The position numbers were made by a program, and so were the translations under genes. A stretch of 41,599 nt of DNA, taken from NCBI GenBank assembly GCA_041738725.1, contig JBGSPG010000022.1, positions 1-41,599 of the forward strand, written 5' to 3'. Shown here piece by piece: positions 1 through 32,917 of this stretch (positions are counted from its first letter, which is position 1; every line of letters begins with the position of its first letter). The notes under the pieces are model-generated. The model searched no databases. It was not told where the DNA came from and was given only the letters and a program-made list of their open reading frames with translations. This DNA comes from Candidatus Saccharimonadales bacterium (GTDB lineage Bacteria; Patescibacteriota; Saccharimonadia; Saccharimonadales; UBA7683).

Positions 1-101
1 GTCAATACAGTTTTCTCAAGAATACGTTTCCAACTTGAAAAAGTCTTTGGCATAATTCTAATTGCACTCGGGGTAAAAGTAGCACTCGGAGCGCATAAAT
101 A

Positions 102-1202
102 ATGGCCAAGCAAGATTACTATGAATTACTGGGTATTTCTAAAGACGCCTCTGCTGATGAAATCAAAAAGGCCTTTCGGAAACTTGCTGTAAAACATCAC
201 CCAGATAAAGAAGGTGGTGATGAAGCTAAGTTTAAAGAAATTAGCGAAGCATACGAGGTCTTGAAGGATCAAACTAAACGACAGCGATACGATCAATTCG
301 GTCATGCCGGTGTTGGTGGTAATAGCGGAGCACCTGGTGGTAATCCATTTGAAGGTTTTGGTGGCCAAGGCCAGAGTATGCACTTTGATTTTGGAGATGG
401 TGGCCTCGGCGACATCTTCGGTAGCTTCTTCGGTGGTGGTCAAAGTCAGCGCCGCTCAGAAGATATGGGTAGAGATATTCAAACTGAAATTACCCTTACA
501 TTTGAAGAAGCCATTTTTGGTCTCGAACGGACAATCAGCCTTTCTATGAATGATGTCTGTACGCACTGTAAGGGCAAGCGTGCTGAGCCGGGCTACGAAC
601 TTAAAACCTGTGAGACCTGTCATGGCTCAGGGCAGGTGGTTCAGCAGATGAACACTATTTTTGGAGCTATTCAACAGGCCGCACTCTGCCGTGAATGTGA
701 AGGGCGAGGTAAAATACCAGAAAAAACCTGTTCAGTCTGTCATGCAACTGGCGTCGAGAGGGTTAAGCAAGAAATCACCATTAAGATTCCTGCTGGTATA
801 GACGACGGTGCTGTTATACGGCTTCGTGAGCACGGCGAGGCTGCCGCAAACGGTAATAAGGGTGATTTGTATGTACAGCTTAATGTGAAGCCCCACAAAC
901 ACTTCACGCGTGAAGGTGATTTAGTGCTTTCTAATGAACATATAGATATGGTAGATGCCGCGCTCGGTACAGAGATAGCGGTACAAACCGTCGATGGTCC
1001 AATTACCATGAAGGTACCGGCTGGTACGCAGAGTGGAACTGACTTCAAGCTTTCTGGTCACGGAGTCCCGCACCTCAGAGATAAAAACCGTGGTCCACAC
1101 ATTGTTACGGTGCTGGTAGACACCCCAACCAACCTTTCAAAAGCACAAAAAGAGATCCTCGAAGAAATTCGAAGCACAAAGAAAAAAGGCTTCTTCGGCT
1201 AG
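102..1202 (+). CDS. dnaJ: Molecular chaperone DnaJ
   Basis: J domain (DYYELLGI...KHHPDK), G/F-rich linker, four zinc-finger repeats (CTHCKGKR, CETCHGSG, CRECEGRG, CSVCHATG), C-terminal substrate-binding region; GGAG about 10 nt upstream of ATG. Confidence 0.95.
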   Translation: MAKQDYYELLGISKDASADEIKKAFRKLAVKHHPDKEGGDEAKFKEISEAYEVLKDQTKRQRYDQFGHAGVGGNSGAPGGNPFEGFGGQGQSMHFDFGDGGLGDIFGSFFGGGQSQRRSEDMGRDIQTEITLTFEEAIFGLERTISLSMNDVCTHCKGKRAEPGYELKTCETCHGSGQVVQQMNTIFGAIQQAALCRECEGRGKIPEKTCSVCHATGVERVKQEITIKIPAGIDDGAVIRLREHGEAAANGNKGDLYVQLNVKPHKHFTREGDLVLSNEHIDMVDAALGTEIAVQTVDGPITMKVPAGTQSGTDFKLSGHGVPHLRDKNRGPHIVTVLVDTPTNLSKAQKEILEEIRSTKKKGFFG

Positions 1203-1276
1203 TTCCATTCTGTGCCGCTTGCCCTATCGAATGATAGGGTCATCCGTATTCCGATACGGGATCCAATCATATAAAC

Positions 1277-1306
1277 CAAAAATGCCGCTATTACAGCGGC
1301 ACTTTT
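1277..1306. terminator. Bidirectional intrinsic terminator between convergent dnaJ and the membrane-protein gene
   Basis: Stem TGCCGCT(1283-1289)/AGCGGCA(1295-1301), 5-nt loop, A-run upstream and T-run downstream; preceded by two further perfect hairpins (CCCTATC-GAAT-GATAGGG at 1222-1239; CCGTAT-TCCG-ATACGG at 1244-1259). Confidence 0.7.
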
Positions 1307-1326
1307 TCAAAGTTAACTCAGAAAAG

Positions 1327-1686
1327 TTATTTTACAATCTGAATTTCACCAATCAGCGGTAATTTTTCCATCTTACCGTTAACTGCATTTATAATGCCGA
1401 TAATTGCAAGAACAAAGCTACCAATTGCTACAACTGGTAGAATTATGAACCAGCCGATAATCGGTAGAATACTACCAACCGTGCTACCGATAAAGCTCAG
1501 AATGAACAGGTTTATAGCTTGCTTAGCGTGGAACTGTGCAAATGCAGAGTCTTTAGCCACAAGTAGTGGTATAAGGAACAAAATTCCAATGTAGCCAATT
1601 GCTGCATATACTTTGTTATCTTCAACGTCTTTAGTTTGTGCCTCTGGCTTAACTGCCTTCGGTGCTGATTTTTTTGCTTCTGCCAT
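1327..1686 (-). CDS. Small integral membrane protein, DUF4870-like
   Basis: Charged N-terminus followed by three hydrophobic helices; segment YAAIGYIGILFLIPLL...AKDSAFAQFHAKQAINL resembles the DUF4870 family signature (from memory). Confidence 0.55.
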   Translation of the reverse strand: MAEAKKSAPKAVKPEAQTKDVEDNKVYAAIGYIGILFLIPLLVAKDSAFAQFHAKQAINLFILSFIGSTVGSILPIIGWFIILPVVAIGSFVLAIIGIINAVNGKMEKLPLIGEIQIVK

Positions 1687-1821
1687 GATGAATTCCTTAT
1701 CCGTTATTAGTATTTCTGCATTAATAATGCCAAAAGTATCGTAAAATTACAATCACATGGTGTATTGTTTATATTTCGTCATGGTACAGTAATGTATATA
1801 TTTATTAAATAGTATTCAAGA

Positions 1822-2838
1822 ATGAAAGTCATTATGCCTGAAGACGCAGTTCCAAATTTACTCGCCGAAGAATACTCTGCGATTAGCTTAATTACGGCTG
1901 AACTTAAAAAAATTGGTTATACACACGAGTATTTTTGGGTTGGCGATGAATCATATTCGAGGTTTCAACATACAAATTCGAGAACGTGGGTTACTAGGAA
2001 CGCGAGTATATCGTACCCAATGACCAACCCTGCAATATCACACCTTTGTAAACATAAAAATCTTACATATGAATATGTGTCGAATAACGGAATAACCGTA
2101 CCAGTCACGCTTCAGCGAGGCGGCGACAAAGACTCTGGCGCCACAGATATGAATGACTTACTAGATAGATTCAAAAAGCTCGTCATCAAACCTGTTGATT
2201 CGCTGTCATCGAAAGGTCTGACTATCGGAGTAACAGACAGTGTGTCGCTGAATATTGCCATCGACTACGCACTCGAGTACTCAGACACGGCTCTTGTACA
2301 ACAACAGATTGAGGGTGATGAAGTTAGGTTTGTACTCTTCGACGGAATAATTACAGCAGCGCTGATTCGGCAGACGCCTCAGGTAGTTGGCGATGGTACT
2401 AGTAGTATCAGAGAGCTCATTGAGCAAGAAAATGTTTCAAGGCGACTAATTGTAGATACCATGGTTACATATCCTGATATCGATGTCGATCAGCTGACTG
2501 GCATCAACTTGTCTTTAATTCCTGAGGATGGAGAGGTTATTGAACTCAGTAGGGCAACCTCTATCCGAAACGGAGCATCGATTTATAATGTAATTGATAA
2601 GGTGCATGAATCGTATATCAAGCTGGTTGAACTACTAATAGCAGATCTAGGTGCACGCTTCATCGTAGTAGATGTGATGTTTAAGGATTATACAATGCCG
2701 GCAGATGACCAAAACTATGCGCTTATTGAGTTCAATGAACTTCCATCGCTTCGACTTTGTTACAGTAGTAGAGACGGCAGTCACTACGATATTTTGAGTT
2801 ATTTAATCCCGATGATTGATTCCACGCTAAAGCATTGA
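1822..2838 (+). CDS. ATP-grasp ligase, RimK-related (alpha-L-glutamate-ligase-related type)
   Basis: 338 aa; ATP-grasp-like elements LVIKPVDSLSSKG, QQQIEGDEVRFVLFDG, ALIEFNELPS (E-x-N metal site); sits immediately upstream of a QEGLA-type gene, the partner such ligases usually have. Confidence 0.55.
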   Translation: MKVIMPEDAVPNLLAEEYSAISLITAELKKIGYTHEYFWVGDESYSRFQHTNSRTWVTRNASISYPMTNPAISHLCKHKNLTYEYVSNNGITVPVTLQRGGDKDSGATDMNDLLDRFKKLVIKPVDSLSSKGLTIGVTDSVSLNIAIDYALEYSDTALVQQQIEGDEVRFVLFDGIITAALIRQTPQVVGDGTSSIRELIEQENVSRRLIVDTMVTYPDIDVDQLTGINLSLIPEDGEVIELSRATSIRNGASIYNVIDKVHESYIKLVELLIADLGARFIVVDVMFKDYTMPADDQNYALIEFNELPSLRLCYSSRDGSHYDILSYLIPMIDSTLKH

Positions 2839-2864
2839 CAAAAAGGTATATTTAGTGCTATAAT
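2835..2864 (+). promoter_or_regulatory. Near-consensus sigma70 promoter with leaderless geometry for the 2872-5728 operon
   Basis: TTGACA (2835-2840), 18-nt spacer, TGc-TATAAT (-10 at 2859-2864), then 7 nt before ATG 2872; no Shine-Dalgarno sequence is possible. Confidence 0.7.
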
Positions 2865-2871
2865 ATTACAC

Positions 2872-4338
2872 ATGTTATCGGCACAAGAAACAGATGTAAA
2901 ACATGAAAAAAAAGTAGGCCTAAGCGAGTCACTTGCTCTACAATCCTATGAATTTTTTGATGGCGGTCCAGAACGTAAAACTTCTGTAGATCGTTTTGTT
3001 AGTGGTGAATCAAGCGAACTTGTGCTTGAATACCCCCTTCTTGATGATCATGAGATTGAAGCGCATGTCTCTAACTTATATGTTGAGGTTTCAGATGATA
3101 ACGAAGTTGCAACGGCCGAGTATAGACTTGCCGAAGCGTACTTCTTACTTGCTGCGAGACGCTTGAACTCTGCAGAACGCCCTGTATCTCAGCAAGAAAT
3201 CGATCATTTTCAAGAAATGAACGAAGCAATATATGGCAAGCCAGATGCCGCATCTACAGATAAGCTACTAACGCGTCTCTGGATATTAATAGATGGCATT
3301 AAAAATCCTATAGCCCAGTCAATACAAGCAGATTTGTCTACTGGCTTTGAGGTGATTCTGGAGGATGGATCGACTGTTGAGGTGCTCGCCTTACCACGCC
3401 CAGAGAATGATCAATCCGGGTCTCTACCAGAGCTTTCAGATGAGGCAGTCTCTTGGCTGCAAGAAACATTGCTTATTAAGTTTGCAGAAGCAAAAGATAT
3501 ATTCGAAGAATACTTTAATACACAGGCTGGCGAAGTCGGGGTTGGTCCTGAAGAGATAGCGACACTCTTTGAAGAGGCTATAGAAACTATGGGACTCGAC
3601 GTAGGTGTCATATTGAAAGAAAACGCGACAATGCTTAGCTGGTCATCAGCTGATGGCGCAGTGTGTGTTGGGTCTGAACGAGAGCCAATAAAAACAGCCA
3701 ACTCGTTACTTGGGGTGTTTGTGCACGAAGTTGGTGTACTTGGGATTAGATCTTCTAGGGGTAATAGCACTGGAATTGAAGCCCTGGGTTCAGGTTTGTT
3801 TACTGAAGCAGACGAAGGCGAAGATCCTAGCTATCTTGCATTTGAGGAGGGTCTAGCTTCTACACTACAAGCAGCCGTTCAGGGCAAAGCAGAGAAGTGG
3901 TCAGCTGTTAGTCTTGCACCTGATCTCTGTATTGCGCTAGCTCATCAGGGTTGGACGCCTCGTCAAACACAGGAACTGGTGACAAAAATTCGAACAGTTG
4001 TAGGAATCAAAAAAGACACGGAGCAGATCACCCCAGAGGTAATCCAAAAAGCCGCTAAGGCTACCGCGAACTATAACACCGTACGTGTATTTCGTGGCAC
4101 TCCAACTGATAGGCACTATAAAACATCAGAAGGCGTTACGCTTCATTATGCAAAAGACCTTGCGTACGTAGCAGGCAAGATTAAGGCAATACCACTCCTA
4201 AATCAATTAGCTTTACTACCAGCACAGGAGCGTGAGAACGAGCTTGAGTTACTACTCAGTTCAAAATATGACCCTACAAATAAGCGTCAGAAAACGTTAG
4301 TGGAATCCGTCGAGAGACATGATAAGGTAATGGTATGA
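2872..4338 (+). CDS. DUF1704 / QEGLA-motif-like protein (putative gluzincin-type carboxypeptidase, possibly degenerate)
   Basis: 488 aa; FVHEVGVLG (His285-Glu286, nt 3724-3729) followed ~40 residues later by FEEGLAS (nt 3844-3858), matching the HE...(Q/E)EGLA arrangement; C-terminal RVFRGTP...YAKDLAYVAGK; the second His of a canonical HExxH is not visible. Confidence 0.5.
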   Translation: MLSAQETDVKHEKKVGLSESLALQSYEFFDGGPERKTSVDRFVSGESSELVLEYPLLDDHEIEAHVSNLYVEVSDDNEVATAEYRLAEAYFLLAARRLNSAERPVSQQEIDHFQEMNEAIYGKPDAASTDKLLTRLWILIDGIKNPIAQSIQADLSTGFEVILEDGSTVEVLALPRPENDQSGSLPELSDEAVSWLQETLLIKFAEAKDIFEEYFNTQAGEVGVGPEEIATLFEEAIETMGLDVGVILKENATMLSWSSADGAVCVGSEREPIKTANSLLGVFVHEVGVLGIRSSRGNSTGIEALGSGLFTEADEGEDPSYLAFEEGLASTLQAAVQGKAEKWSAVSLAPDLCIALAHQGWTPRQTQELVTKIRTVVGIKKDTEQITPEVIQKAAKATANYNTVRVFRGTPTDRHYKTSEGVTLHYAKDLAYVAGKIKAIPLLNQLALLPAQERENELELLLSSKYDPTNKRQKTLVESVERHDKVMV

Positions 4339-4820
4339 GTAAGTATCAAGTAATTATTGGGCGTTTTGAGTATGTCGATATTACGGATGGTTTATGCGCT
4401 ATTCCTGCAAAAATTGATACCGGTGCAAACCGCTCGTCCATCCATGCATCAAAGATTCACGTTGTGACTACCGCCGGCAAAGAAGTACTTCACTTTACGC
4501 TTCTTAACCACCCCACTCATCCAGAGGGTGTTTCTATGTCTACAGACAAGTTTTCACAGATGCAAGTGAAGAGTTCAAATGGCCATATTTCTACACGATA
4601 TGAAATTAAGCTTAAAATTAAGCTCGGCTATAAAGTATTCGTAGCCTCATTCACACTTGCAGATCGTTCAAATAACGTCTTCCCGATATTAATTGGTAGA
4701 GAGGCGCTGCGTACTCGCTTTCTGGTTGACCCCGAAAGAGCAGGAGTTAAACGCAGTGAACTAAAATCTGCATTAGCTAAAACAACAATCGTCGAAGACA
4801 TAGAAGGAGTAAACGTATGA
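4335..4820 (+). CDS. RimB-like retropepsin-fold protease (DUF785, 'ATP-dependent zinc protease' family)
   Basis: 161 aa; IPAKIDTGANRSSIHA with an aspartic-protease D-T-G triad (nt 4416-4424); ATGA overlap with the upstream gene (4335-4338) and with the downstream rimK (4817-4820). Confidence 0.7.
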   Translation: MSKYQVIIGRFEYVDITDGLCAIPAKIDTGANRSSIHASKIHVVTTAGKEVLHFTLLNHPTHPEGVSMSTDKFSQMQVKSSNGHISTRYEIKLKIKLGYKVFVASFTLADRSNNVFPILIGREALRTRFLVDPERAGVKRSELKSALAKTTIVEDIEGVNV

Positions 4821-5728
4821 ACATAGTAATTCTCAGTAACGGCCCAAGTAACTACTCCACGAAGCGTCTTAAAGAAGAGGCGCTTGCCCGTGGGCATAAG
4901 GTACGGATTGTAAAATACCGTGATTGTTATGCAGGTATTGAACAGAGTAACCCGACCGTTAGTTATAAAGGAATTGATCTAATTGATGTTGATGCAATTA
5001 TCCCGCGTATCGCAAGTAACATGACTAGGTACGGAACCGCTATTGTCCGTCAGTTTGAAATGCAGGGAGTCTATACAACTGCCAGTTCAATCGCAATTGT
5101 TCGTTCACGAGATAAGCTCCGGTCTATGCAGTTGTTTGCAAAAGCTGGAGTTGGAATACCGAAGACTGTTTTTTCACGCAATACTCTCGATATTGACGAT
5201 CTCCTAGAACAGGTGGGTGGTACACCAGTTATCATTAAGCTTGCTCGCGGAACTCACGGTAACGGCGTTGTGCTTGCTGAAACAAAGAAGGCCGCAAAGT
5301 CGGTTCTTCAGGCACTTTATCTACATAACGAAGATGGAACGAACATCTTATTGCAAGAATTTGTAAAAGAGTCAGCGGGTGAAGACATTCGTGCATTTGT
5401 TGTGGGTGGTAGGGTTGTTGCAAGTATGAAGCGACAAAGTCTTGATGACGATTTCAGAAGTAACCTACACCAGGGAGGTGAGGGGGCTACAGTTAAATTG
5501 ACTGATGAAGAGAAGAAGGTTGCTCTCAAGGCTGCCAAGTCAATGGGTCTTGCTATATGTGGTGTAGATATGATGCGCTCAGCACGTGGGCCACTAGTTC
5601 TAGAAGTTAACTCTAGCCCTGGCTTCGGTATAGAAAAGGTGACAGGGCGTAACGTTGCAGCAAAAGTGATAGACTATATCGAGATCAATGCGAAACGGAA
5701 TAATAAAAAAGATAAGGTTGGTGCGTAA
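4817..5728 (+). CDS. rimK: RimK-family alpha-L-glutamate ligase (ribosomal protein S6 modification-type ATP-grasp)
   Basis: 303 aa; N-terminus MNIVILSNGPSNYSTKRLKEEALARGHKV, VIIKLARGTHGNGV, ILLQEFVKES..DIRAFVVGGRVV, VLEVNSSPG are typical RimK ATP-grasp blocks. Confidence 0.85.
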   Translation: MNIVILSNGPSNYSTKRLKEEALARGHKVRIVKYRDCYAGIEQSNPTVSYKGIDLIDVDAIIPRIASNMTRYGTAIVRQFEMQGVYTTASSIAIVRSRDKLRSMQLFAKAGVGIPKTVFSRNTLDIDDLLEQVGGTPVIIKLARGTHGNGVVLAETKKAAKSVLQALYLHNEDGTNILLQEFVKESAGEDIRAFVVGGRVVASMKRQSLDDDFRSNLHQGGEGATVKLTDEEKKVALKAAKSMGLAICGVDMMRSARGPLVLEVNSSPGFGIEKVTGRNVAAKVIDYIEINAKRNNKKDKVGA

Positions 5729-6149
5729 AGTATTCATAGGGGCGGGAATTTGTGTAATTGGTGCCCTATTATTTTTTGCGATAACTTCGCAAAAACAGCT
5801 TGTACCACTAACGATAGGTGGACAAAGTCTTAATGTAGAAATTGCGAATACGTCGCAAAAAAGAGAACAGGGTTTATGTTGCCGAGAGAACTTACCTTCT
5901 GATCAGGGTATGTTGTTTGTGTATGACTCACCTGGCGATTATCGATTTTGGATGAAAGACACTCAGATTCCGCTCGATATGTTTTGGATTGATTCTAAGA
6001 AGTCTGTTGTACATATAGAAGAGAACGTGCAGCCGAGCAGCTATCCGCAAACGTTTGGCACAAGTATTCCAGCACAATATGTACTTGAAACAAACGCAGG
6101 ATTCGCAAAAGAGTACGGTATTAAAAATCGCGACAAAGTCGCATTTTAG
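5688..6149 (+). CDS. DUF192 domain protein with an N-terminal membrane anchor
   Basis: TM helix, then LPSDQGMLFVY...FWMKDTQIPLDMFWID, typical of DUF192; the start is uncertain (overlaps the rimK end by 41 nt; an alternative GTG lies near 5721). Confidence 0.65.
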   Translation: MRNGIIKKIRLVRKVFIGAGICVIGALLFFAITSQKQLVPLTIGGQSLNVEIANTSQKREQGLCCRENLPSDQGMLFVYDSPGDYRFWMKDTQIPLDMFWIDSKKSVVHIEENVQPSSYPQTFGTSIPAQYVLETNAGFAKEYGIKNRDKVAF

Positions 6150-6200
6150 AAAAACCACGTATGCTTCCTCCCCTATGCCAAATCTGATACCATTAGCAGT

Positions 6201-6683
6201 ATGGTAGATATTATTGCACCCGTTGTGGTCCTTCTTGTTGTCTTGGTTGTTGTTCTTCATAGAACCAGTGCTGGCGTTGCCGTATTGGCATTACTTGCAG
6301 GTGTACTTTTAGACCAGCTGCTCAGTGCGTGGGTGATAGCAGCGCTGCCATCACAGCAGGCCCCACTTAATATATATGTTTCTGTAGTCGTACATCTGCT
6401 GATTACGTTCACTCCAATGGTGGTGGCTCTGGCATTTGTAAAGGCGACTCGTCAATCTCTAATTGTCCCGATATTAACAGGGCTTGTCCTGGGTTTCTTG
6501 GTTGTGTACTTTGGCCTAAGGATTGTTGCTCCGCTTCCTGCGGTTACTAAAGTTGCAAATAAATCAGGGTTGATTACGTTCTTGGGCCCATATCAGAACG
6601 CAATACTAGCAGCCAGCGCGGTGCTAGCAATTCTAGCTATGGTGATAGATCACCGCAAAATCAGAGGCAAAAAAGACAAATAA
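6201..6683 (+). CDS. Hypothetical polytopic membrane protein
   Basis: 160 aa, almost entirely hydrophobic helices, basic C-terminus (HRKIRGKKDK); no recognisable family motif. Confidence 0.5.
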   Translation: MVDIIAPVVVLLVVLVVVLHRTSAGVAVLALLAGVLLDQLLSAWVIAALPSQQAPLNIYVSVVVHLLITFTPMVVALAFVKATRQSLIVPILTGLVLGFLVVYFGLRIVAPLPAVTKVANKSGLITFLGPYQNAILAASAVLAILAMVIDHRKIRGKKDK

Positions 6684-6762
6684 CATTGCCTTTAACCTGT
6701 TATTATGAGAAAATACCCTAGTCTTCGTCAAACGGCGAACCGTACATTCCATTCTAAAATAA

Positions 6763-6783
6763 GGGCCAGTAGCTCGGCTGCCC
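6763..6783 (+). pseudogene. Internally deleted remnant of tRNA-Lys (5' acceptor/D-stem fused to the 3' acceptor strand)
   Basis: GGGCCAGTAGCTCgGCTGCCC equals tRNA positions 1-13 joined to GGCTG(G)CCC of the 3' end; the upstream ATAA context is also duplicated relative to the intact gene at 6890. Confidence 0.6.
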
Positions 6784-6820
6784 TTAAAAACACAGTTGTT
6801 AAAAAATAGATAATAAGCCT

Positions 6821-6832
6821 GTGCTCTAACCA
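6821..6832 (-). repeat. Inverted 12-nt fragment of the tRNA-Lys D-arm
   Basis: GTGCTCTAACCA is the exact reverse complement of TGGTTAGAGCAC in the tRNA at 6906-6917. Confidence 0.5.
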
Positions 6833-6889
6833 AACGGTAATCACAACAGTTTATTACAGAGCGTACCTTCCAAAATCACATATATATAA

Positions 6890-6966
6890 GGGCCAGTAGC
6901 TCAGCTGGTTAGAGCACCTGCCTTTTAAGCAGGGTGTCCCGGGTTCAAGTCCCGGCTGGCCCTCCA
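6890..6966 (+). tRNA. tRNA-Lys (anticodon UUU), CCA encoded
   Basis: Cloverleaf read by eye: acceptor GGGCCAG/CTGGCCC, D-stem GCTC/GAGC, anticodon stem CCTGC/GCAGG with loop CTTTTAA (anticodon TTT), T-stem CCGGG/CCCGG with loop TTCAAGT, discriminator T plus CCA. Confidence 0.9.
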
Positions 6967-7018
6967 ATATGGTTATGTTTAAAAGACGCGAAAGCGTCTT
7001 TTTTGGTATGATGAACAC
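6956..7018 (+). repeat. Junction repeat A (native tRNA 3' end + GAAA-loop terminator + extended -10)
   Basis: CTGGCCCTCCA-ATATGGTTATGTTTAAAAGACGC-GAAA-GCGTCTTTTTTGgTATGAT, then 6 nt to ATG 7019. Confidence 0.75.
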
Positions 7019-7693
7019 ATGAACCAACCTTCAATAAGTATCGTCATCCCAGCCTTCAACGAGGCTAAGAATATCGAACCGTGCATTAAAGCTATCCGGC
7101 CTCAACTTAAAGATGGTGATGAGCTTATTGTAGTTGATAACAACTCAATCGATGCTACAACAAAGCTAGCTAAACAATGTGGTGCAATTGTCCTGTATGA
7201 AGGAAAACAGGGTATAAGCTATGCTCGCAATAAAGGATTTAATTCAGCCAAGAACCCCATTATTGCTCGAACAGATGCCGATACGATTATTGGTGAGGAT
7301 TGGCTTGATAGTATACGTGAATATTATCAACAAGAAGATCTCCAAGATAATGCTGTAGGCGGTCCAGTGTACCTTAAAGAGTTCTTACCACTCAGGTTAG
7401 GCGTCCATCAGGGACTCACTAAGAAGATGCTTGGTCATGAAACCTTAATTGGTGGTAATTTTGCTCTATCAAAAAGTCTATGGGATAAAGTAAAAGGCAG
7501 AGTAAGTAATGACGATAGTATGTACGCCGAAGATATGGAGTTGGCAATTCTCATAACCAAGAGTGGCGGGCAAGTTGAGTTTCTGCCATCAATGATTGTC
7601 GCAACATCAGCTCGTTGGATGATACGGCATCCAATACACTCGCTTACTACTTGGCGAGCAAAGACCAAACAGACTAAGCGGCTGCAATTCTAG
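7019..7693 (+). CDS. Family 2 glycosyltransferase (cassette 1)
   Basis: ISIVIPAFNEAKNI, LIVVDNNSID, ARTDADT (DxD-like): typical GT-A/GT2 blocks. Confidence 0.8.
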   Translation: MNQPSISIVIPAFNEAKNIEPCIKAIRPQLKDGDELIVVDNNSIDATTKLAKQCGAIVLYEGKQGISYARNKGFNSAKNPIIARTDADTIIGEDWLDSIREYYQQEDLQDNAVGGPVYLKEFLPLRLGVHQGLTKKMLGHETLIGGNFALSKSLWDKVKGRVSNDDSMYAEDMELAILITKSGGQVEFLPSMIVATSARWMIRHPIHSLTTWRAKTKQTKRLQF

Positions 7694-22105: not shown

Positions 22106-22507
22106 TTAGCGTATTAGGCTGAGTTTTATAAATGGTGCTTCTTTTTCGAGTTCTGTTGCAAGGGTGAAGCTCTTACATTTTGCCTCTGTGCATCCGGTCG
22201 GAGTATACACATACAAACTATCTGTTTGACCAATTGCATTCCCGTTACTGTCTTTGAGACTTTCGGGATCGATACCTTTTAGAATTGCGACACTAATAGC
22301 TTGGGGGTAGTGGCCATTCTTTTCATGAAATGCCTCGAGTTGGTAATACACAGAGTTGACATCACTTTTACGGGTAGCGTCTCTTTGCTCTGCACGTACC
22401 CCGCGGATGTTAGTCAGCGCCAATACGGTGACTGCAGAGAGTGCAACTATGCACACCATTAGTTCAATAATTGTGAAACCGCCTGAAGTGAGTGATTGTT
22501 TTTTCAT
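22106..22507 (-). CDS. Type IV pilin-like protein (orphan)
   Basis: Prepilin leader and processing site MKKQSLTSGG/FTIIELMVCIVAL with Glu at +5; two C-terminal Cys (CTEAKC). Confidence 0.75.
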   Translation of the reverse strand: MKKQSLTSGGFTIIELMVCIVALSAVTVLALTNIRGVRAEQRDATRKSDVNSVYYQLEAFHEKNGHYPQAISVAILKGIDPESLKDSNGNAIGQTDSLYVYTPTGCTEAKCKSFTLATELEKEAPFIKLSLIR

Positions 22508-23659: not shown

Positions 23660-24100
23660 ATGACGACTACTGGTCACGCAGTAACTGGTGCATTAATTGC
23701 AACGCTTGTGAGGCAGCCGCTTCTGGCTATACCGCTTGCCTTCGCGAGTCATTTTGTGTGTGACGCCCTACCTCATTTTGGGCTTGGTATGAAGTTTGGC
23801 AGTAAAAAAATGTATTACTGGTTAGTAATAGATGGACTTGTTGCTCTTTGTATCGCAGTGTTTCTTATATACATAGGGGTTGCAGACCCAGTACTGCTTG
23901 CAGTCTGTGGTTTTGCGGCGATGTCTCCAGATTTGGCGTGGCTCTATTATGGGCTCAGAGGTGAGCATGGTGACTATAAAAAATATGACTGGATCTCACG
24001 GTTTCACTCCAAAATACAGTGGTACGAAAAACCTCAAGGAATACTAGTCGATCTAGTGTGGTCAATTGTAATGGTGGCTGGTATTGTAAGTTTACAATGA
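23660..24100 (+). CDS. Small membrane protein, possibly DUF457/YdjM-like membrane-bound metal-dependent hydrolase
   Basis: 146 aa, four helices; N-terminal TTGHAVTG and SHFVCDALPH resemble the DUF457 His/Asp pattern (weak). Confidence 0.4.
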   Translation: MTTTGHAVTGALIATLVRQPLLAIPLAFASHFVCDALPHFGLGMKFGSKKMYYWLVIDGLVALCIAVFLIYIGVADPVLLAVCGFAAMSPDLAWLYYGLRGEHGDYKKYDWISRFHSKIQWYEKPQGILVDLVWSIVMVAGIVSLQ

Positions 24101-24780
24101 AGATTACTAAGATTTCTCAGCAGGTAAAGCGGCCAGATCGGTATTCGATCTATATTGATGAGACCTACTCATTTTCTTTAAATGAGTATCAATTGGCGGG
24201 ATCCGGGCTGCGTATTGGTAGGGAGTTTACACTAGTAGAACTAGAAGAACTTCAGCAAGAATCTCAGTTTGGTAAGGCGTACGAACGGACATTAAACTAC
24301 ATTCTAATCAGACCACGTTCTGAAAAAGAGATTCGCGATTACTTAACACGGACGTTTATGTATCCAAAGCCAAAAGTATTTATGGATAAAGCGGGGAATA
24401 GAGTTATTCAAAAACGTGAGGTTAATAAAACCCAGGTTAGCCAGGTAATTGAAAGAGTCCTGGAACGCTTAAACGAAAAAAAGTACATAAACGACGAGGC
24501 GTTCGCTCGCGCCTGGGTGCAATCACGACAGTTTACAAAAAAATCGAGTACGAGAAGAATGCAACAAGAGCTACAAGCAAAAGGTGTTGACCAAGAAATA
24601 ATTGCGACAGTATTGCAAAATGAAGACATTGATGAACGAGATAACCTGAGGCTTTTAGTTGAAAAAAAGCGGAAGTTAAGTCGGTATCAAGATGATGCAA
24701 AGCTTATCCCCTATTTGGTTCGTCAGGGTTTCACGTATAGTGATGTTAAGGCAGTGCTAGAGGGGATGGATGATGAGTAG
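24097..24780 (+). CDS. recX: Recombination regulator RecX
   Basis: MKITKISQQVKRPDRYSIYIDE..., repeated three-helix modules (ERTLNYILIRPRSEKEIRDYL, ERVLERLNEKKYINDEAFARAW); ATGA overlap with the upstream gene; the track's longer N-terminus lies out of frame inside the upstream CDS. Confidence 0.8.
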   Translation: MKITKISQQVKRPDRYSIYIDETYSFSLNEYQLAGSGLRIGREFTLVELEELQQESQFGKAYERTLNYILIRPRSEKEIRDYLTRTFMYPKPKVFMDKAGNRVIQKREVNKTQVSQVIERVLERLNEKKYINDEAFARAWVQSRQFTKKSSTRRMQQELQAKGVDQEIIATVLQNEDIDERDNLRLLVEKKRKLSRYQDDAKLIPYLVRQGFTYSDVKAVLEGMDDE

Positions 24781-28826: not shown

Positions 28827-29237
28827 ATGAAAAGAACTAAATTAGGTTCACAAGGTTTCACAATCGTAGAACTTTTGATCGTTATTGTGATCATTGGTAT
28901 CTTGGCAACAATTGGTTTTGTGTCTTTCTCAAGCGCACAGAACAAAGCAAAAAAGAGCAAAGCTCAGTCAACAGTTTCACAAGTTAAATCTAAACTTGGT
29001 GAATACTTCTCTGAAAACAACTCTTACCCAGAAGATAAAGCTGGTGTAGTTTCATACCTAGCAGGTAACGGTGGTGCTACAACATCAACAGAGTTCAGTG
29101 CAGCAGCTTATGGCTACGCAGCAGAACCAACTGGTTGTACAACTGCAGCTGATGACTGTACTACATTTACACTTACAGCAGCAAAGACTTACTGGAACGG
29201 TGATACCGCTGATACAGATATCTCAGTTACTCCGTAA
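28827..29237 (+). CDS. pilA: Major type IV pilin
   Basis: MKRTKLGSQG/FTIVELLIVIVIIGILA (class III signal, Glu+5), 136 aa, C-terminal Cys pair (CTTAADDC). Confidence 0.85.
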   Translation: MKRTKLGSQGFTIVELLIVIVIIGILATIGFVSFSSAQNKAKKSKAQSTVSQVKSKLGEYFSENNSYPEDKAGVVSYLAGNGGATTSTEFSAAAYGYAAEPTGCTTAADDCTTFTLTAAKTYWNGDTADTDISVTP

Positions 29238-29332: not shown

Positions 29333-30826
29333 ATGAATAAATTTCGAACGATGAAGGAGGATGGGTTTACAATTGCCGAACTGGTGGTTTCAATGGTTAT
29401 TTTAATAACCTTTTCGCTCGGTGTCATGGGTACGTACTTTATTATGGTAGGATCTGCGGCAACAGCACGAATGAAGTCCGCAGGACTTTCACTTGCAACC
29501 GAGCAGTTAGAGTACCTCCGGTCACTTCCATATGATCAATTGGCAACTCAGGGCGGTGCGATTAATACAACTGGAGCAAAACTGCCTCCAACAAAAGAAC
29601 GTACGGTTGGGCCGTATACGTTCGTCGTTACGACAGCCATCAATTACGCAGATGACGCATTTGACGGCTGTCTTATCTATCCAAGTGCACAAAGTTATCT
29701 TTGTAGAAACGGGCCCATAAAAACAGGTACTCCTGTTGACGCTAATCCGAGAGACTACAAAATTATTGACGTATTCGTAAAGGAGAAGAACTCGAATAAA
29801 GAAGCCTCCAGGGTGAGCACCCAGATTGCGGCTCGGGTGGCAGAGACTGGCGGAGGCACTGGGGCAATAGTTGTTTCCGTTGTAGACTCCACGGGTCAGG
29901 TTATTGGTGACGCTCAGGTTACTGTTGTGAATACCACGGTAACCCCAAATATTAACCAAACGATTAATACAGATGTAAATGGTGTGGCACTGTTCTTAGA
30001 CGTAACTCCCGATAGTGGTAAGGACTATATTGTATCGGTATCGAAATCGGGGTACAGCAGTCTATCTACCATACCGGTATCCGGTAGCTTATTGCCGACA
30101 TACCCAAATATAAGCGTTATATCACAGCAGGTTACGAGTTCAACAATGAAGATAGATCGAACTGCTACGGATAGCTTGCTGATACGCATAGTCGATACTT
30201 CGGGCAATCCGATTTCCGGCAGTTCATTCTCTATTCGCGGTGGGGTAAAGTTATATACAAGCGTTGCTGACCAAAGCTATGGTTACACACAGACAGGAGT
30301 CACGACAAACATAAGTGGAGAATACTTGTTTAATAACCTAACACCTGGGCAGTATCAGGTTTGCTACACAAGCAGTCTTTGTTCGCCAGGAAGATACCTC
30401 GTCTCGGCTCAGGCAATGTATGGGTCTCAATCTTGGCAACCGTTTACAGTAGACGCCGGAGTTATTAACCAAAACGGTACACTACCGATGCAGACAGTCG
30501 TCCTCACCACTACAAGCTCATCTTCGTTCCCGCGGGTATCAAGCACGAGCCCAAGTAGTATATCTTCGGCAAGTGGTACACTCGGCGAGGTTGAGGTAAT
30601 TATTAATGGCTCAAACCTCATAGGCGCAGTAGTTTTTATGCGACAGTCTGCCGTTCAAGTCCCAGGTACACTTATTGGTACTGATTCGGCGAGTTCAATT
30701 AGAAGATCCTTCGACTTAACCGGTAAAACCGGCGCGTGGGAGCTCGTTGTTACTACAGGTAGCGGTACGGTAATGCAGGATGGACTACTACCTGGTACAC
30801 TCGGAGGTTTTAATGTCACGCCGTAG
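29333..30826 (+). CDS. Large pilin-like protein with carboxypeptidase-regulatory-like (Ig-like beta-sandwich) repeats
   Basis: MNKFRTMKEDG/FTIAELVVSMVIL prepilin N-terminus; repeats such as VVSVVDSTGQVIGDAQVTVVN...TDVNGVA and IRIVDTSGNPISGSSFSIRGG; start moved from 29273 because that codon lies inside the pilA terminator. Confidence 0.65.
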   Translation: MNKFRTMKEDGFTIAELVVSMVILITFSLGVMGTYFIMVGSAATARMKSAGLSLATEQLEYLRSLPYDQLATQGGAINTTGAKLPPTKERTVGPYTFVVTTAINYADDAFDGCLIYPSAQSYLCRNGPIKTGTPVDANPRDYKIIDVFVKEKNSNKEASRVSTQIAARVAETGGGTGAIVVSVVDSTGQVIGDAQVTVVNTTVTPNINQTINTDVNGVALFLDVTPDSGKDYIVSVSKSGYSSLSTIPVSGSLLPTYPNISVISQQVTSSTMKIDRTATDSLLIRIVDTSGNPISGSSFSIRGGVKLYTSVADQSYGYTQTGVTTNISGEYLFNNLTPGQYQVCYTSSLCSPGRYLVSAQAMYGSQSWQPFTVDAGVINQNGTLPMQTVVLTTTSSSSFPRVSSTSPSSISSASGTLGEVEVIINGSNLIGAVVFMRQSAVQVPGTLIGTDSASSIRRSFDLTGKTGAWELVVTTGSGTVMQDGLLPGTLGGFNVTP

Positions 30827-31406
30827 CCGGAATCAAGTAGGCTTCACCATTTCTGAAATGGTCATCGTAATTAGTTTACTTTCAATTGTAGCGATCTTAT
30901 TTGCTAATTTTTTCAGCGATAATTACAAGTCGTATATTCAGCTGCAGCAAAATACCGTTCGTGTTAATACACTTAGTAGTGCAAGTCAACGCATCGCCCG
31001 GGTACTACGGGGCCTGACTACAATTTCCACTGCCGAACCCACCGATATTACAGGATACGCGTACTTTACCCCACGGGATACTACTCTTTCGCGGGTCCGG
31101 TACTATTTTGACGGATCAAGTAATAGTATTAAGGTTAGTGTTATTCCTGCAAGCGGTACCGCACCGAATTATGTCTATAACAGTGCAAGTGAGCGCGTTA
31201 CAACTATTGCTGAAAACATAGACGGTACGGTTGCTATATTTACATACCTCGACACGGCTAACCAGCCTGCCACATTCACAACTGATACGTATAAAGACAT
31301 TAAAGGCATTGGGCTGCATCTTAAGGGCAGTACCGTTGCAGGGTATTCAAGTCCGTTTGAAATAAAAACATCAATCTCACTACGAAACAGAAAGACTAAT
31401 TTATGA
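30813..31406 (+). CDS. Minor pilin / pseudopilin
   Basis: MSRRSRNQVG/FTISEMVIVISLL; GGAGG 6 nt upstream of ATG 30813; overlaps the upstream stop. Confidence 0.65.
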   Translation: MSRRSRNQVGFTISEMVIVISLLSIVAILFANFFSDNYKSYIQLQQNTVRVNTLSSASQRIARVLRGLTTISTAEPTDITGYAYFTPRDTTLSRVRYYFDGSSNSIKVSVIPASGTAPNYVYNSASERVTTIAENIDGTVAIFTYLDTANQPATFTTDTYKDIKGIGLHLKGSTVAGYSSPFEIKTSISLRNRKTNL

Positions 31407-32917
31407 AGCTGCGCCTAAATCAAAATGAAGGATTTATTATACCCGCACTACTGGTGGTTATAGTTACTTTTAGCGTGTTACTGATTGGCCTGGGCGATGT
31501 TATTAATAATACACTTGGTGATGCTGCTCGAACTCAATCAAAACAAATGTCACTCAACATTGCCGAGGCGGGTATTAATTACTATCTATGGCATATTAGC
31601 CATAGCCCCACCGATTACAAAGACGGAAACACAACTCCAGCAACTCCAGACCCAAACCTTGGGTATGGGCCCTATGTACGCACCTATAGAGACGCGAACG
31701 GTGTAGAAAGAGGGACCTTCACATTATACATACAACCCGATACTACGGGATCTAATTTGGTGACCGTCAGGTCAATTGGCAAGTCGAGTAACCTGTTAAA
31801 TACTACGCGTACGGTGGAAGCTAAAATCGGCGCACCATCTTTTAGTACTTATGCAGTTGTCGGTAACTCAGAGCTTTGGTTCGGCTCTACTGAGACCGCC
31901 GACGGCCCCGTGCATTCGAATGCGGGCGTAAAGATGGACGGTCCCAATAATAGTGATGTAACAAGCGCGAATACAACATATATTCCATCTTCTACAAGCG
32001 GCCCAGGTTCCGGTACTAGTCAGTCGGGTGTCTGGTGTAATACTTCAGTTTCAACACCAAACTGTAACACGCGGTCAAAGGCGAGTTGGCGGTACCCCGT
32101 TGCAAGCGTCGATTTCAATAAGGTGACTGCGGATCTGTGCCAGCTCAAAAAGAACGCAACTAACAACCAGGCTTCAAATGCTTGTAGTGCGAGGCCAGCC
32201 CGAACTGGATCGTATATTCCAGCACGTACAAATAACTTTTCTATAAATAGTGGCTACCTAATAATTCTAAATACGAACGGCACTTACAGTTTGCGCTCCG
32301 TTACAAATGAACGAGATGATCGAGCAAATTACAGCGCTGCACTCAGTAGCACGGTAATTGCAAATAATATCGCAATTCCGGCCAATGGAGTTATCTTTGT
32401 TGAAGATAATGTATGGGTACTTTCTGAGTCGGGTGGGTTTAATGGCAGGGTTACCATTGCCTCGGCTCGATTAGCCACGAGTGGCTCGACAACTATTACT
32501 GTCGCCGATAAGCTGGCCTATCAAGATCAGTATAACGGTAACGATGTGATTGGGTTGATAGCAGAAAACGACGTCGATATTGCACCCTATGTGCCCATAC
32601 CCCTAACAGTACATGCAGCCATGATTGCACAATCTGGTAGGGTACAGTTTCGACCGCAGTACAACTACAACGGTAACAATACACCAGGCTATATAAACAC
32701 AAACCAGACGCTCAAGTTTTTTGGCTCAATAGCGTCGAACGAACAATGGACCTGGTCGTGGATCCGTTGCGGCAGCAACAGTACTGCTTGCTGGAGCGGT
32801 TTTAAGAATAACGAAACTAAGTATGATGAAAACTTACGTTACAGACCACCACCAAGCTTTCCGGTTACGAGTACATACGACATTTTAGAATGGCGAGAGA
32901 TTATTATAGCTCCGTAG
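31403..32917 (+). CDS. Large pilus-associated protein with a PilX-like N-terminal helix
   Basis: MKLRLNQNEG/FIIPALLVVIVTF, then a 480-aa Ser/Thr/Asn-rich secreted domain; ATGA overlap with the upstream gene. Confidence 0.5.
   Translation: MKLRLNQNEGFIIPALLVVIVTFSVLLIGLGDVINNTLGDAARTQSKQMSLNIAEAGINYYLWHISHSPTDYKDGNTTPATPDPNLGYGPYVRTYRDANGVERGTFTLYIQPDTTGSNLVTVRSIGKSSNLLNTTRTVEAKIGAPSFSTYAVVGNSELWFGSTETADGPVHSNAGVKMDGPNNSDVTSANTTYIPSSTSGPGSGTSQSGVWCNTSVSTPNCNTRSKASWRYPVASVDFNKVTADLCQLKKNATNNQASNACSARPARTGSYIPARTNNFSINSGYLIILNTNGTYSLRSVTNERDDRANYSAALSSTVIANNIAIPANGVIFVEDNVWVLSESGGFNGRVTIASARLATSGSTTITVADKLAYQDQYNGNDVIGLIAENDVDIAPYVPIPLTVHAAMIAQSGRVQFRPQYNYNGNNTPGYINTNQTLKFFGSIASNEQWTWSWIRCGSNSTACWSGFKNNETKYDENLRYRPPPSFPVTSTYDILEWREIIIAP

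Follow-up and report, generated by a model that had tools for sequence, protein, structure and literature searches.

Gene layout and protein families of the locus

The 41,599-nucleotide (nt) stretch of DNA analysed here, referred to as the window, is contig JBGSPG010000022.1 of a Candidatus Saccharimonadales bacterium (assembly GCA_041738725.1). Positions 1822 to 6149 encode a module of two predicted ATP-grasp ligases, RimK and a relative of CphA and GshF, and two predicted peptidases, a RimB-like protein and a relative of the eukaryotic carboxypeptidase MATCAP, followed by a DUF192 protein. Open reading frames (ORFs) and motifs were read within the window, and the module lies on the + strand throughout. 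The five ORFs proposed in an initial annotation of this DNA are present exactly where it had placed them. The features are as follows, with protein lengths in amino acids (aa) and supporting evidence in brackets.

1822..2838, + strand: predicted ATP-grasp ligase of the clade of the CphA G domain, the GshF C-terminal domain and N-acetylglutaminylglutamine amide (NAGGN) synthetase, 338 aa, accessory member of the module (NCBIfam, PDB, Foldseek)
2835..2864, + strand: sigma-70-type promoter TTGACA-N18-TGcTATAAT (12/12 match, direct sequence reading)
2872..4338, + strand: MATCAP/DUF1704-like gluzincin, predicted metallocarboxypeptidase, 488 aa (PF08014 matches of its clade, 140-sequence profile, Foldseek)
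3724..3741, + strand: metal-site motif H285-E286-V-G-V-L290 (alignment and DNA)
3844..3852, + strand: EEG motif E325-E326-G327, presumed third metal ligand, intact (140-sequence profile, MATCAP alignment)
4335..4820, + strand: RimB-like retropepsin-type aspartic endopeptidase, predicted, 161 aa (PF05618, DTG)
4817..5728, + strand: RimK, predicted alpha-L-glutamate ligase, 303 aa (PF08443, PF18030, TIGR00768, 7qyr)
5688..6149, + strand: DUF192 protein with an N-terminal hydrophobic anchor, 153 aa (PF02643)
6201..6683, + strand: polytopic membrane protein of no family, 160 aa (no Pfam or NCBIfam match; tblastn in relatives)
6890-6966: tRNA-Lys(UUU) (Rfam)

ATGA stop/start overlaps join the MATCAP-like gene to rimB at 4335-4338 and rimB to rimK at 4817-4820, as had been proposed, and rimK overlaps the DUF192 gene by 41 nt. 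The gap between 1822-2838 and 2872-4338 is 33 nt long and holds the promoter. Its -35 element TTGACA (2835-2840) and its -10 element TATAAT (2859-2864) lie 18 nt apart, TG precedes the -10 element within this spacer, and the promoter shares nucleotides with the stop codon of the gene before it. This is the sole 12/12 sigma-70 match within positions 1200-7100. Only 7 nt separate the end of the -10 element from the ATG at 2872, and the transcript is predicted to be leaderless. The layout TTGACA-N18-TATAAT-N6/7-ATG also precedes the MATCAP-like orthologue in two related loci (L001 and L006), indicating that the promoter is no chance match and upholding the consensus leaderless promoter of the initial annotation. 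A -10-like hexamer lies 4-10 nt before the start codon of about 14 of the 47 genes of the window (e.g. 15244, 21376 and 35594), and a Shine-Dalgarno-like motif is found at about 18 of the 47 gene starts, so that leaderless transcription seems to be frequent in the source genome. Since leaderless-style starts are common in the contig, the 2835-2864 promoter appears to be an ordinary transcription-unit start rather than a special feature. An Rfam scan of positions 1-7200 found no RNA element besides the tRNA-Lys.

The product of 4817-5728 has both the ATP-grasp and the pre-ATP-grasp domains of RimK (PF08443, E 2.5e-59; PF18030, E 2.2e-34). It scores 250.7 bits against TIGR00768, above the family cutoff of 143.4 bits, and 328.4 bits against the S6-glutamate ligase equivalog NF007764, just under the cutoff of 331 bits. 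Its PDB sequence matches to Pseudomonas RimK (7qyr, E 2.2e-90) and E. coli RimK (4iwx, E 9e-85) extend over the full length, and the protein is identified by these matches as a bona fide RimK. The product of 4335-4820 matches PF05618 (E 3.8e-22, 79 bits, cutoff 27) and carries the DTG motif as D28-T29-G30 at 4416-4424, and no N-terminal signal sequence was found in its translation. Its score against the RimB equivalog NF052261 is 68.6 bits, below the cutoff of 200 bits, and so it is termed RimB-like rather than assigned to the curated equivalog; it is predicted to be a cytoplasmic RimB-like retropepsin adjoining rimK. The product of 5688-6149 matches PF02643 (E 4.2e-33, 113.8 bits, gathering cutoff 27). 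These three assignments, including that of a RimB/DUF785-like retropepsin with DTG, agree with the initial annotation.

The product of 1822-2838 had been described as a RimK-related ATP-grasp protein. It does belong to the ATP-grasp enzymes, but its relatives are not of the RimK type. Its best NCBIfam matches are at the domain level, to the ATP-grasp domains of NAGGN synthetase (TIGR03103, E 1.7e-31), cyanophycin synthetase (TIGR02068, E 1.8e-30) and GshAB (NF002688, E 7.8e-25), far below the whole-protein cutoffs, and its PDB sequence matches are CphA1 (7lgn, E 7.7e-18) and GshAB (3ln6). Consistently, the top Foldseek matches of its AlphaFold2 (AF2) model, which has a predicted local distance difference test score (pLDDT) of 88, are GshF (3ln7/3ln6), CphA1 and CphA2, with E of about 1e-20 and template modelling (TM) scores (TMq) of 0.6-0.7; all of the best 50 of the 382 matches at E ≤1e-3 are ATP-grasp enzymes. 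Residues K123, D284, E303 and N305, which from general knowledge of ATP-grasp enzymes we take to be ligands of ATP and Mg2+, are invariant among 15 homologues. These data assign the protein, by sequence and model, to a CphA-G/GshF-C/NAGGN-synthetase clade of predicted ligases. In the CphA, GshF and NAGGN synthetase families, a peptide is activated at its C-terminal carboxylate, to which an amino acid or a dipeptide is then joined. Unlike CphA1/CphA2 and GshF, whose G domain and C-terminal domain, respectively, are its best sequence and structure matches, the protein stands alone with 338 aa, having no GshA module and none of the N and M domains of CphA, and is therefore neither a cyanophycin nor a glutathione synthetase. 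An assignment as cyanophycin synthetase was also rejected on the TIGR02068 match itself, which covers the G domain only, pairs residues 72-331 with positions 207-469 of the 862-position model and scores 105.7 bits where 850 bits are required, and an assignment as D-Ala-D-Ala ligase was rejected as a domain-only match far below the cutoffs.

Family membership and metal site of the MATCAP-like protein

The product of 2872-4338 on its own matches PF08014 (DUF1704) at E 0.05 and 13 bits, below the cutoff of 27 bits, whereas 24 of the 26 members of its clade match this family at E ≤0.01 (best 1.1e-9); membership of PF08014 therefore holds at the level of the clade and not of the single sequence. 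The clade set consists of this protein and 25 homologues that are 30-57% identical, and both of the homologues that carry organism names are from Saccharibacteria; an exhaustive profile search gave 1033 relatives at E ≤1e-3. Against PDB sequences, the single sequence gave chance matches only (NKP1, E 0.027) and a 26-sequence profile missed MATCAP, and a 140-sequence profile found human MATCAP/KIAA0895L (7z5g) at E 5.8e-9. The aligned pairs of profile and MATCAP are HEvGvH/HEIGTH, EEGLA/EEGLA, vRifRG/VRAKRG and KDlaYleG/KDQVYLDG. A Foldseek search of the PDB with the AF2 model (pLDDT 90.4, predicted TM score 0.88) gave MATCAP 7z5g as the sole match with E <1e-3 (E 2.8e-4, probability 1.00), though at low global TM scores of 0.29/0.40 and a root-mean-square deviation (rmsd) of 12 Å; the next match was a Thermus M32 carboxypeptidase. 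The protein gave no match at E ≤0.1 to TIGR02421, the family of QEGLA motif proteins (cutoff 338.65 bits), its distant relatives score 25-83 bits against this model, and its motif reads FEEGLA and not QEGLA, so that assignment to the QEGLA equivalog was rejected. Of the initial description as a DUF1704/QEGLA-like protein, the DUF1704 part is borne out. By profile and probably by fold, and not by its single sequence, the protein is assigned to a divergent clade of predicted MATCAP/DUF1704 gluzincins in Saccharibacteria and other bacteria of the candidate phyla radiation (CPR).

The motifs described for TMCP1/MATCAP are HExxxH and EEG, the latter providing the third ligand (PMC10499314). In the window copy, H285 (3724-3726) and E286 (3727-3729) are followed by L290 (3739-3741) in place of the second His, with the codon CTT lying one base away from CAT/CAC. 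None of the 75 relatives examined, 25 close homologues and 50 homologues encoded by loci from GTDB and other assemblies, has lost the second His, and its column is at least 90% conserved in the 140-sequence family; Leu occurs in the window copy only. Among the 140 sequences, E326 never varies, conservation of E325 and of G327 is at least 90%, and the window sequence F-E325-E326-G-L-A aligns with EEGLA of MATCAP. A second departure from a position conserved in 25 of 25 homologues is Y351D. The window copy keeps 64 of the 66 most conserved positions, its ORF is otherwise intact, and its sequence is known from one contig only.

Since H290L affects a metal-ligand position and is accompanied by Y351D, the window copy is probably impaired in catalysis, unless a base was miscalled, and the family as a whole looks catalytic. 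The initial annotation had noted the missing second His, for which it had assumed an HExxH motif, and had considered a non-catalytic reader. The His is indeed missing in the window, but the family motif is HExxxH plus EEG and the change is private to the window copy, so that a non-catalytic reader cannot account for the family; a family-wide pseudoenzyme was rejected on the 25 of 25 and 50 of 50 homologues that keep HExxxH.

Conservation of the gene neighbourhood

When GTDB was scanned with one genome for each species, a MATCAP-like gene turned up in 47 loci, almost all of which are from Saccharibacteria and which include the complete chromosome of oral taxon 488; related loci are cited below by L numbers. 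In 30 of these 47 species loci, rimB and rimK lie on the same strand within 8 kb of the MATCAP-like gene, usually beside dnaJ, in three gene orders: MATCAP-rimB-rimK, MATCAP-ligase-rimB-rimK and rimB-rimK-MATCAP. Across the related loci, rimB is always immediately upstream of rimK. The CphA-G-like ligase gene adjoins the MATCAP-like gene in 12 of the 47 loci, 11 of which also have rimK, and the exact gene order of the window recurs in three assemblies of one relative (L001-L003), in the matching species representative (L009) and in L006. Because this linkage survives rearrangement, a shared function of the linked genes is suggested. It also strengthens the initial picture of two ligases and two peptidases. 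The merging of both pairs of writer and eraser, which the initial annotation had called unusual, is unusual outside Saccharibacteria but not within this phylum. Across Saccharibacteria, the identity of RimK is 65-88%, that of DnaJ 58-81%, that of RimB 34-62% and that of the MATCAP-like protein 24-50%.

The DUF192 gene lies downstream of rimK in 15 of the 47 species loci, and it also follows rimK in many metagenomic Saccharibacteria rimK loci with or without a MATCAP-like gene, a link that is apparently unreported. A homologue of the membrane protein gene 6201-6683, whose product has no Pfam or NCBIfam match, follows DUF192 in the closest relatives (L001-L003, L006, L009 and L010; tblastn). DUF192 and the downstream membrane protein thus travel with rimK, and it is uncertain whether the latter belongs to the module.

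The reverse view was taken from metagenomic loci retrieved with the RimK of the window. Those of the Saccharibacteria type L058, L062-L067 and L071 contain the MATCAP-like gene, and in other loci dnaJ is followed directly by rimB or the slot between them is filled differently, by a second RimK-like ligase, a RimB-ligase fusion, a 758-aa ligase-X-RimB fusion, or a RimB-RimK hybrid with two further ATP-grasp genes. A RimB domain fused in either order to a second RimK-like ATP-grasp domain is encoded at L054:4723-6999, L064:5652-7001, L088:5638-6990, L090:493-1905 and L135:7498-8898, one of these being the 758-aa protein and one locus carrying the RimB-RimK hybrid; earlier reports of hybrid RimBK proteins came mostly from Flavobacteriales and Rhodobacterales (PMC11957791). 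Some loci encode another conserved domain, about 320 aa long, which is either free-standing beside rimB (L068:2088-3062 and L087:5499-6482, both on the - strand) or fused between ATP-grasp and RimB domains (middle of L054:4723-6999). It has no significant Pfam match: the L054 copy matches DUF3541 weakly (18 bits, cutoff 28), and the free-standing L068:2088-3062 has no Pfam match at E ≤0.01. In the same locus, L068:312-2051 encodes a 579-aa protein with HELEH in the usual slot of the MATCAP-like gene, and this HELEH aligns with the HExxxH of the family without significance (hhalign probability 14%). Between the MATCAP-like gene and rimB, the CphA-G-like ligase gene is fragmented in L019:9653-10168, L021:9794-10168 and L026:9559-9795. 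These loci are from Saccharibacteria of the oral type, among them the complete genome of oral taxon 488, and their sequences suggest that the accessory ligase may have decayed recently in this group.

Beyond Saccharibacteria, a metagenome-assembled genome of Gracilibacteria (L048:6381-10758) carries a CphA-G-like ATP-grasp gene and, after it, a tandem pair of MATCAP-like genes, no RimK being encoded nearby. In Photobacterium sp. DA100 (plasmid pDA100, L134:3735-6729), a GshB-like ATP-grasp gene (NF009110, 488 bits) is directly followed by a gene for a canonical QEGLA protein (TIGR02421, 460 bits), and the two overlap. These two cases make an ATP-grasp ligase and a MATCAP-family protein a recurrent pair. 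The Photobacterium stretch is without annotation in the plasmid table, and the first MATCAP-like protein of L048 ends in CDGEEEE, its TAA stop being followed by a terminator-like hairpin. A QEGLA protein beside an ATP-grasp gene is noted in the TIGRFAMs annotation, and the Photobacterium locus confirms one instance. The pairing is not universal in the family, since the gene for an annotated QEGLA-motif protein on plasmid 9 of Legionella adelaidensis (L133, 5662-6951) is flanked by dapA and the glutamate racemase gene murI and adjoins no ATP-grasp gene. Where loci come from other bacteria and the RimK identity is 47-54%, rimK is followed by a gene for an AstE/AspA-family (M14-clan) enzyme, which makes a partner of the metallo-carboxypeptidase type a recurring theme for RimK. 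This enzyme has 347 aa and ends in DEDEII (L094, L097-L102, L104, L107, L114 and L119; e.g. L100:7903-8946).

Proposed function and rival explanations

RimB-RimK has been characterised experimentally, and modules of ATP-grasp enzymes and peptidases are a known theme. The locus resembles the RimABK system of polyglutamylation of RpsF in Pseudomonas (PMC4741518, PMC7343187, PMC11957791) in the rimB-rimK order with overlapping genes, in the full-length match of RimK and in a RimB-like protein with DTG and no signal peptide. Unlike that system, the operon lacks RimA and adds the MATCAP-like peptidase, the CphA-G-like ligase and DUF192, and its host is a reduced-genome CPR bacterium in which S6 (RpsF) is a putative target. 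The eukaryotic MATCAP/TMCP1 and TMCP2 (KIAA0895L/KIAA0895; 7z5g; PMC10499314) belong to the same family as the MATCAP-like protein by profile and probably by fold, and their HExxxH, EEG(LA), RxxRG and KDxxYxxG motifs align with those of the window clade. MATCAP and the TTL/TTLL enzymes offer a further parallel, an ATP-grasp writer and a carboxypeptidase eraser acting on acidic C-terminal tails, an activity that is predicted by analogy for the window proteins. In contrast to MATCAP, the window protein carries Leu in place of the second His and has about 240 extra N-terminal residues, tubulin is absent, the identity is only about 15%, and the global TM score to the human catalytic domain is low. 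The gammaproteobacterial TIGR02421 proteins ('flavohemoglobin expression-modulating QEGLA motif protein') form a bacterial DUF1704 branch that resembles the window clade in lying directly after an ATP-grasp ligase gene in Photobacterium, but the partner ligase is of a different ATP-grasp subfamily (GshB-like), there is no link to rimBK, and the window protein, with FEEGLA in place of QEGLA, does not match the model. RloABC of Pseudomonas aeruginosa (PMC12239564) is an offshoot of the rim theme that likewise places a retropepsin-like peptidase beside an ATP-grasp protein. It differs in that RloA is secreted and RloB, a seven-transmembrane inactive transglutaminase, is absent from the window operon; TIGR02291, the RloC type, is not among the 25 of 26 NCBIfam matches listed for 1822-2838 and turns up as a weak match to RimK only.

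RimB takes Glu off polyglutamylated RpsF, cuts runs of Glu and has a stimulating effect on RimK, which makes free poly-alpha-glutamate under stimulation by RimB (PMC11957791). The eukaryotic MATCAP/TMCP enzymes are carboxypeptidases that take Tyr or Glu off the C-terminus of acidic tails and trim alpha-linked polyglutamate chains (PMC10499314). What the parts are, and that their linkage is conserved and withstands rearrangement, was directly observed; from this we infer a chemistry in which the two ligases and two peptidases would build and trim alpha-linked acidic C-terminal chains, a reading to which we give about an even chance. The operon would be the Saccharibacterial rimB-rimK system with two accessory enzymes, transcribed mainly from the leaderless promoter at 2835-2864. 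By analogy with E. coli and Pseudomonas, RimK would add alpha-linked Glu to a C-terminal carboxylate, the target being S6 or free poly-alpha-glutamate, and RimB would bind RimK and cut runs of Glu endoproteolytically. The MATCAP-like gluzincin may shorten or uncap the acidic chain residue by residue from its C-terminal end, as eukaryotic MATCAP/TMCP do, and the CphA-G/GshF-like ligase, as its counterpart, may add a different residue to the peptide C-terminus as a cap or primer. A model of two extending ligases and two shortening peptidases, one exo and one endo, would be the most economical. Since RimK is about as conserved as DnaJ, the identities favour a conserved macromolecular target such as S6. 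A more far-reaching version, which we consider doubtful, is a prokaryotic 'tail code' in Saccharibacteria and some other CPR bacteria, in which RimK would polyglutamylate S6 or another protein, the second ligase would cap the chain, and the MATCAP-like protein (exo) and RimB (endo) would erase it. If so, the eukaryotic tubulin cycle of TTL/TTLL and MATCAP/TMCP would have its bacterial counterpart, and possibly its evolutionary origin, in this module.

Several observations weigh against the chain-building and trimming reading. No rimK lies near 17 of the 47 MATCAP-like genes, and many Saccharibacteria rimBK loci have other accessory genes and no MATCAP-like gene, so that the partnership of MATCAP-like protein and RimBK is facultative. 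The structural match to MATCAP has a low global TM (0.29/0.40) and an rmsd of 12 Å, and the MATCAP-like copy of the window itself lacks one metal ligand. CphA, GshF and NAGGN synthetase, to which the second ligase is structurally related, act on small peptides or polymers and not on proteins. The gene for S6, rpsF, was not found in the window or in 134 related loci (about 1.28 Mb) with E. coli and B. subtilis S6 sequences as queries. An operon-encoded substrate with an acidic C-terminus was also sought in the related loci, and no recurrent candidate was found near Saccharibacteria operons.

The main rival explanation is a cycle of free polyglutamate or peptide, in which the product of RimK and the CphA-G-like ligase, either poly-alpha-glutamate or a short peptide of acidic character, would serve as a store of amino acids or as a compatible solute, and RimB (endo) and the MATCAP-like protein (exo) would mobilise it. 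To our knowledge, Saccharibacteria lack amino-acid biosynthesis, which makes a reserve polymer plausible. Cyanophycin, glutathione and NAGGN, the products of the nearest relatives of the second ligase, are all free molecules, and RimB-stimulated synthesis of free poly-alpha-glutamate by RimK (PMC11957791) and the link of the related Rlo retropepsins to osmotic stress tolerance (PMC12239564) point in the same direction. However, RimK is 65-88% identical, comparable to DnaJ at 58-81%, and lies within 3 bits of the cutoff of the S6-glutamate ligase equivalog, and both findings agree better with a conserved substrate that is a macromolecule. Genes for export or storage are not apparent, and Saccharibacteria have not been reported to contain such a polymer. 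The free-polymer cycle is a possible explanation, though on the unlikely side.

It is also conceivable, though improbable, that two unrelated systems are neighbours, with rimB-rimK acting on S6 and the pair of ATP-grasp ligase and MATCAP-like protein acting in, for example, cell-wall or small-peptide metabolism. Such a separation would suit the pair without rimK in Gracilibacteria, the 17 of 47 loci in which the MATCAP-like gene stands alone, the Legionella QEGLA gene adjoining murI and dapA, and the variable slot between dnaJ and rimB. The genes that replace one another in this slot are, however, again ATP-grasp ligases and RimB fusions, suggesting that the slot is functionally themed and not random; moreover, the same-strand adjacency holds in 30 of 47 species through three gene orders, and ATGA overlaps join the MATCAP-like gene to rimB and rimK. 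These linkage data make mere adjacency less likely. Very improbable, finally, is a MATCAP-like protein that serves as a non-catalytic reader or scaffold, an idea that is excluded for the family, in which every other homologue examined keeps HExxxH and EEG, and that could apply to the window copy only, as a pseudoenzyme or early gene decay. L290 and Y351D would fit loss of activity, and an intact ORF with 64 of 66 conserved positions would fit retention for binding, but a single-base assembly error or a minor population variant in the one contig would explain the replaced His as well.

The literature search found no paper linking bacterial MATCAP-family proteins to RimK (a 2009 amidoligase survey was outside its coverage), none mentioning RimK in Saccharibacteria and none of relevance on QEGLA proteins or DUF192. 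We know of no demonstrated function for bacterial MATCAP/DUF1704/QEGLA proteins. The neighbourhoods tie a whole MATCAP-family clade genetically to RimK, a polyglutamate writer, and RimB, a known eraser, across a phylum of very small genomes, so that it becomes directly and cheaply testable whether a bacterial MATCAP relative is a C-terminal deglutamylase or an uncapping carboxypeptidase. They also carry the RimK system, which had been studied in Pseudomonas and E. coli, into the CPR bacteria. A parallel can further be drawn with the eukaryotic tubulin-tail enzymes, among which MATCAP/TMCP and M14 carboxypeptidases are the partners of ATP-grasp ligases. Should S6 be the substrate, organisms that shed most of their regulatory machinery would have kept the module as a device of translational control.

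Elsewhere in the window, prepilin-like N-termini (GFTIIEL or GFTIVELL) are encoded at 22106-22507 (- strand), 28827-29237, 30780-31406 and 31403-32917, which suggests a putative type IV pilus or pseudopilin cluster at about 22-35 kb, and 24019-24780 encodes RecX by its Pfam match.

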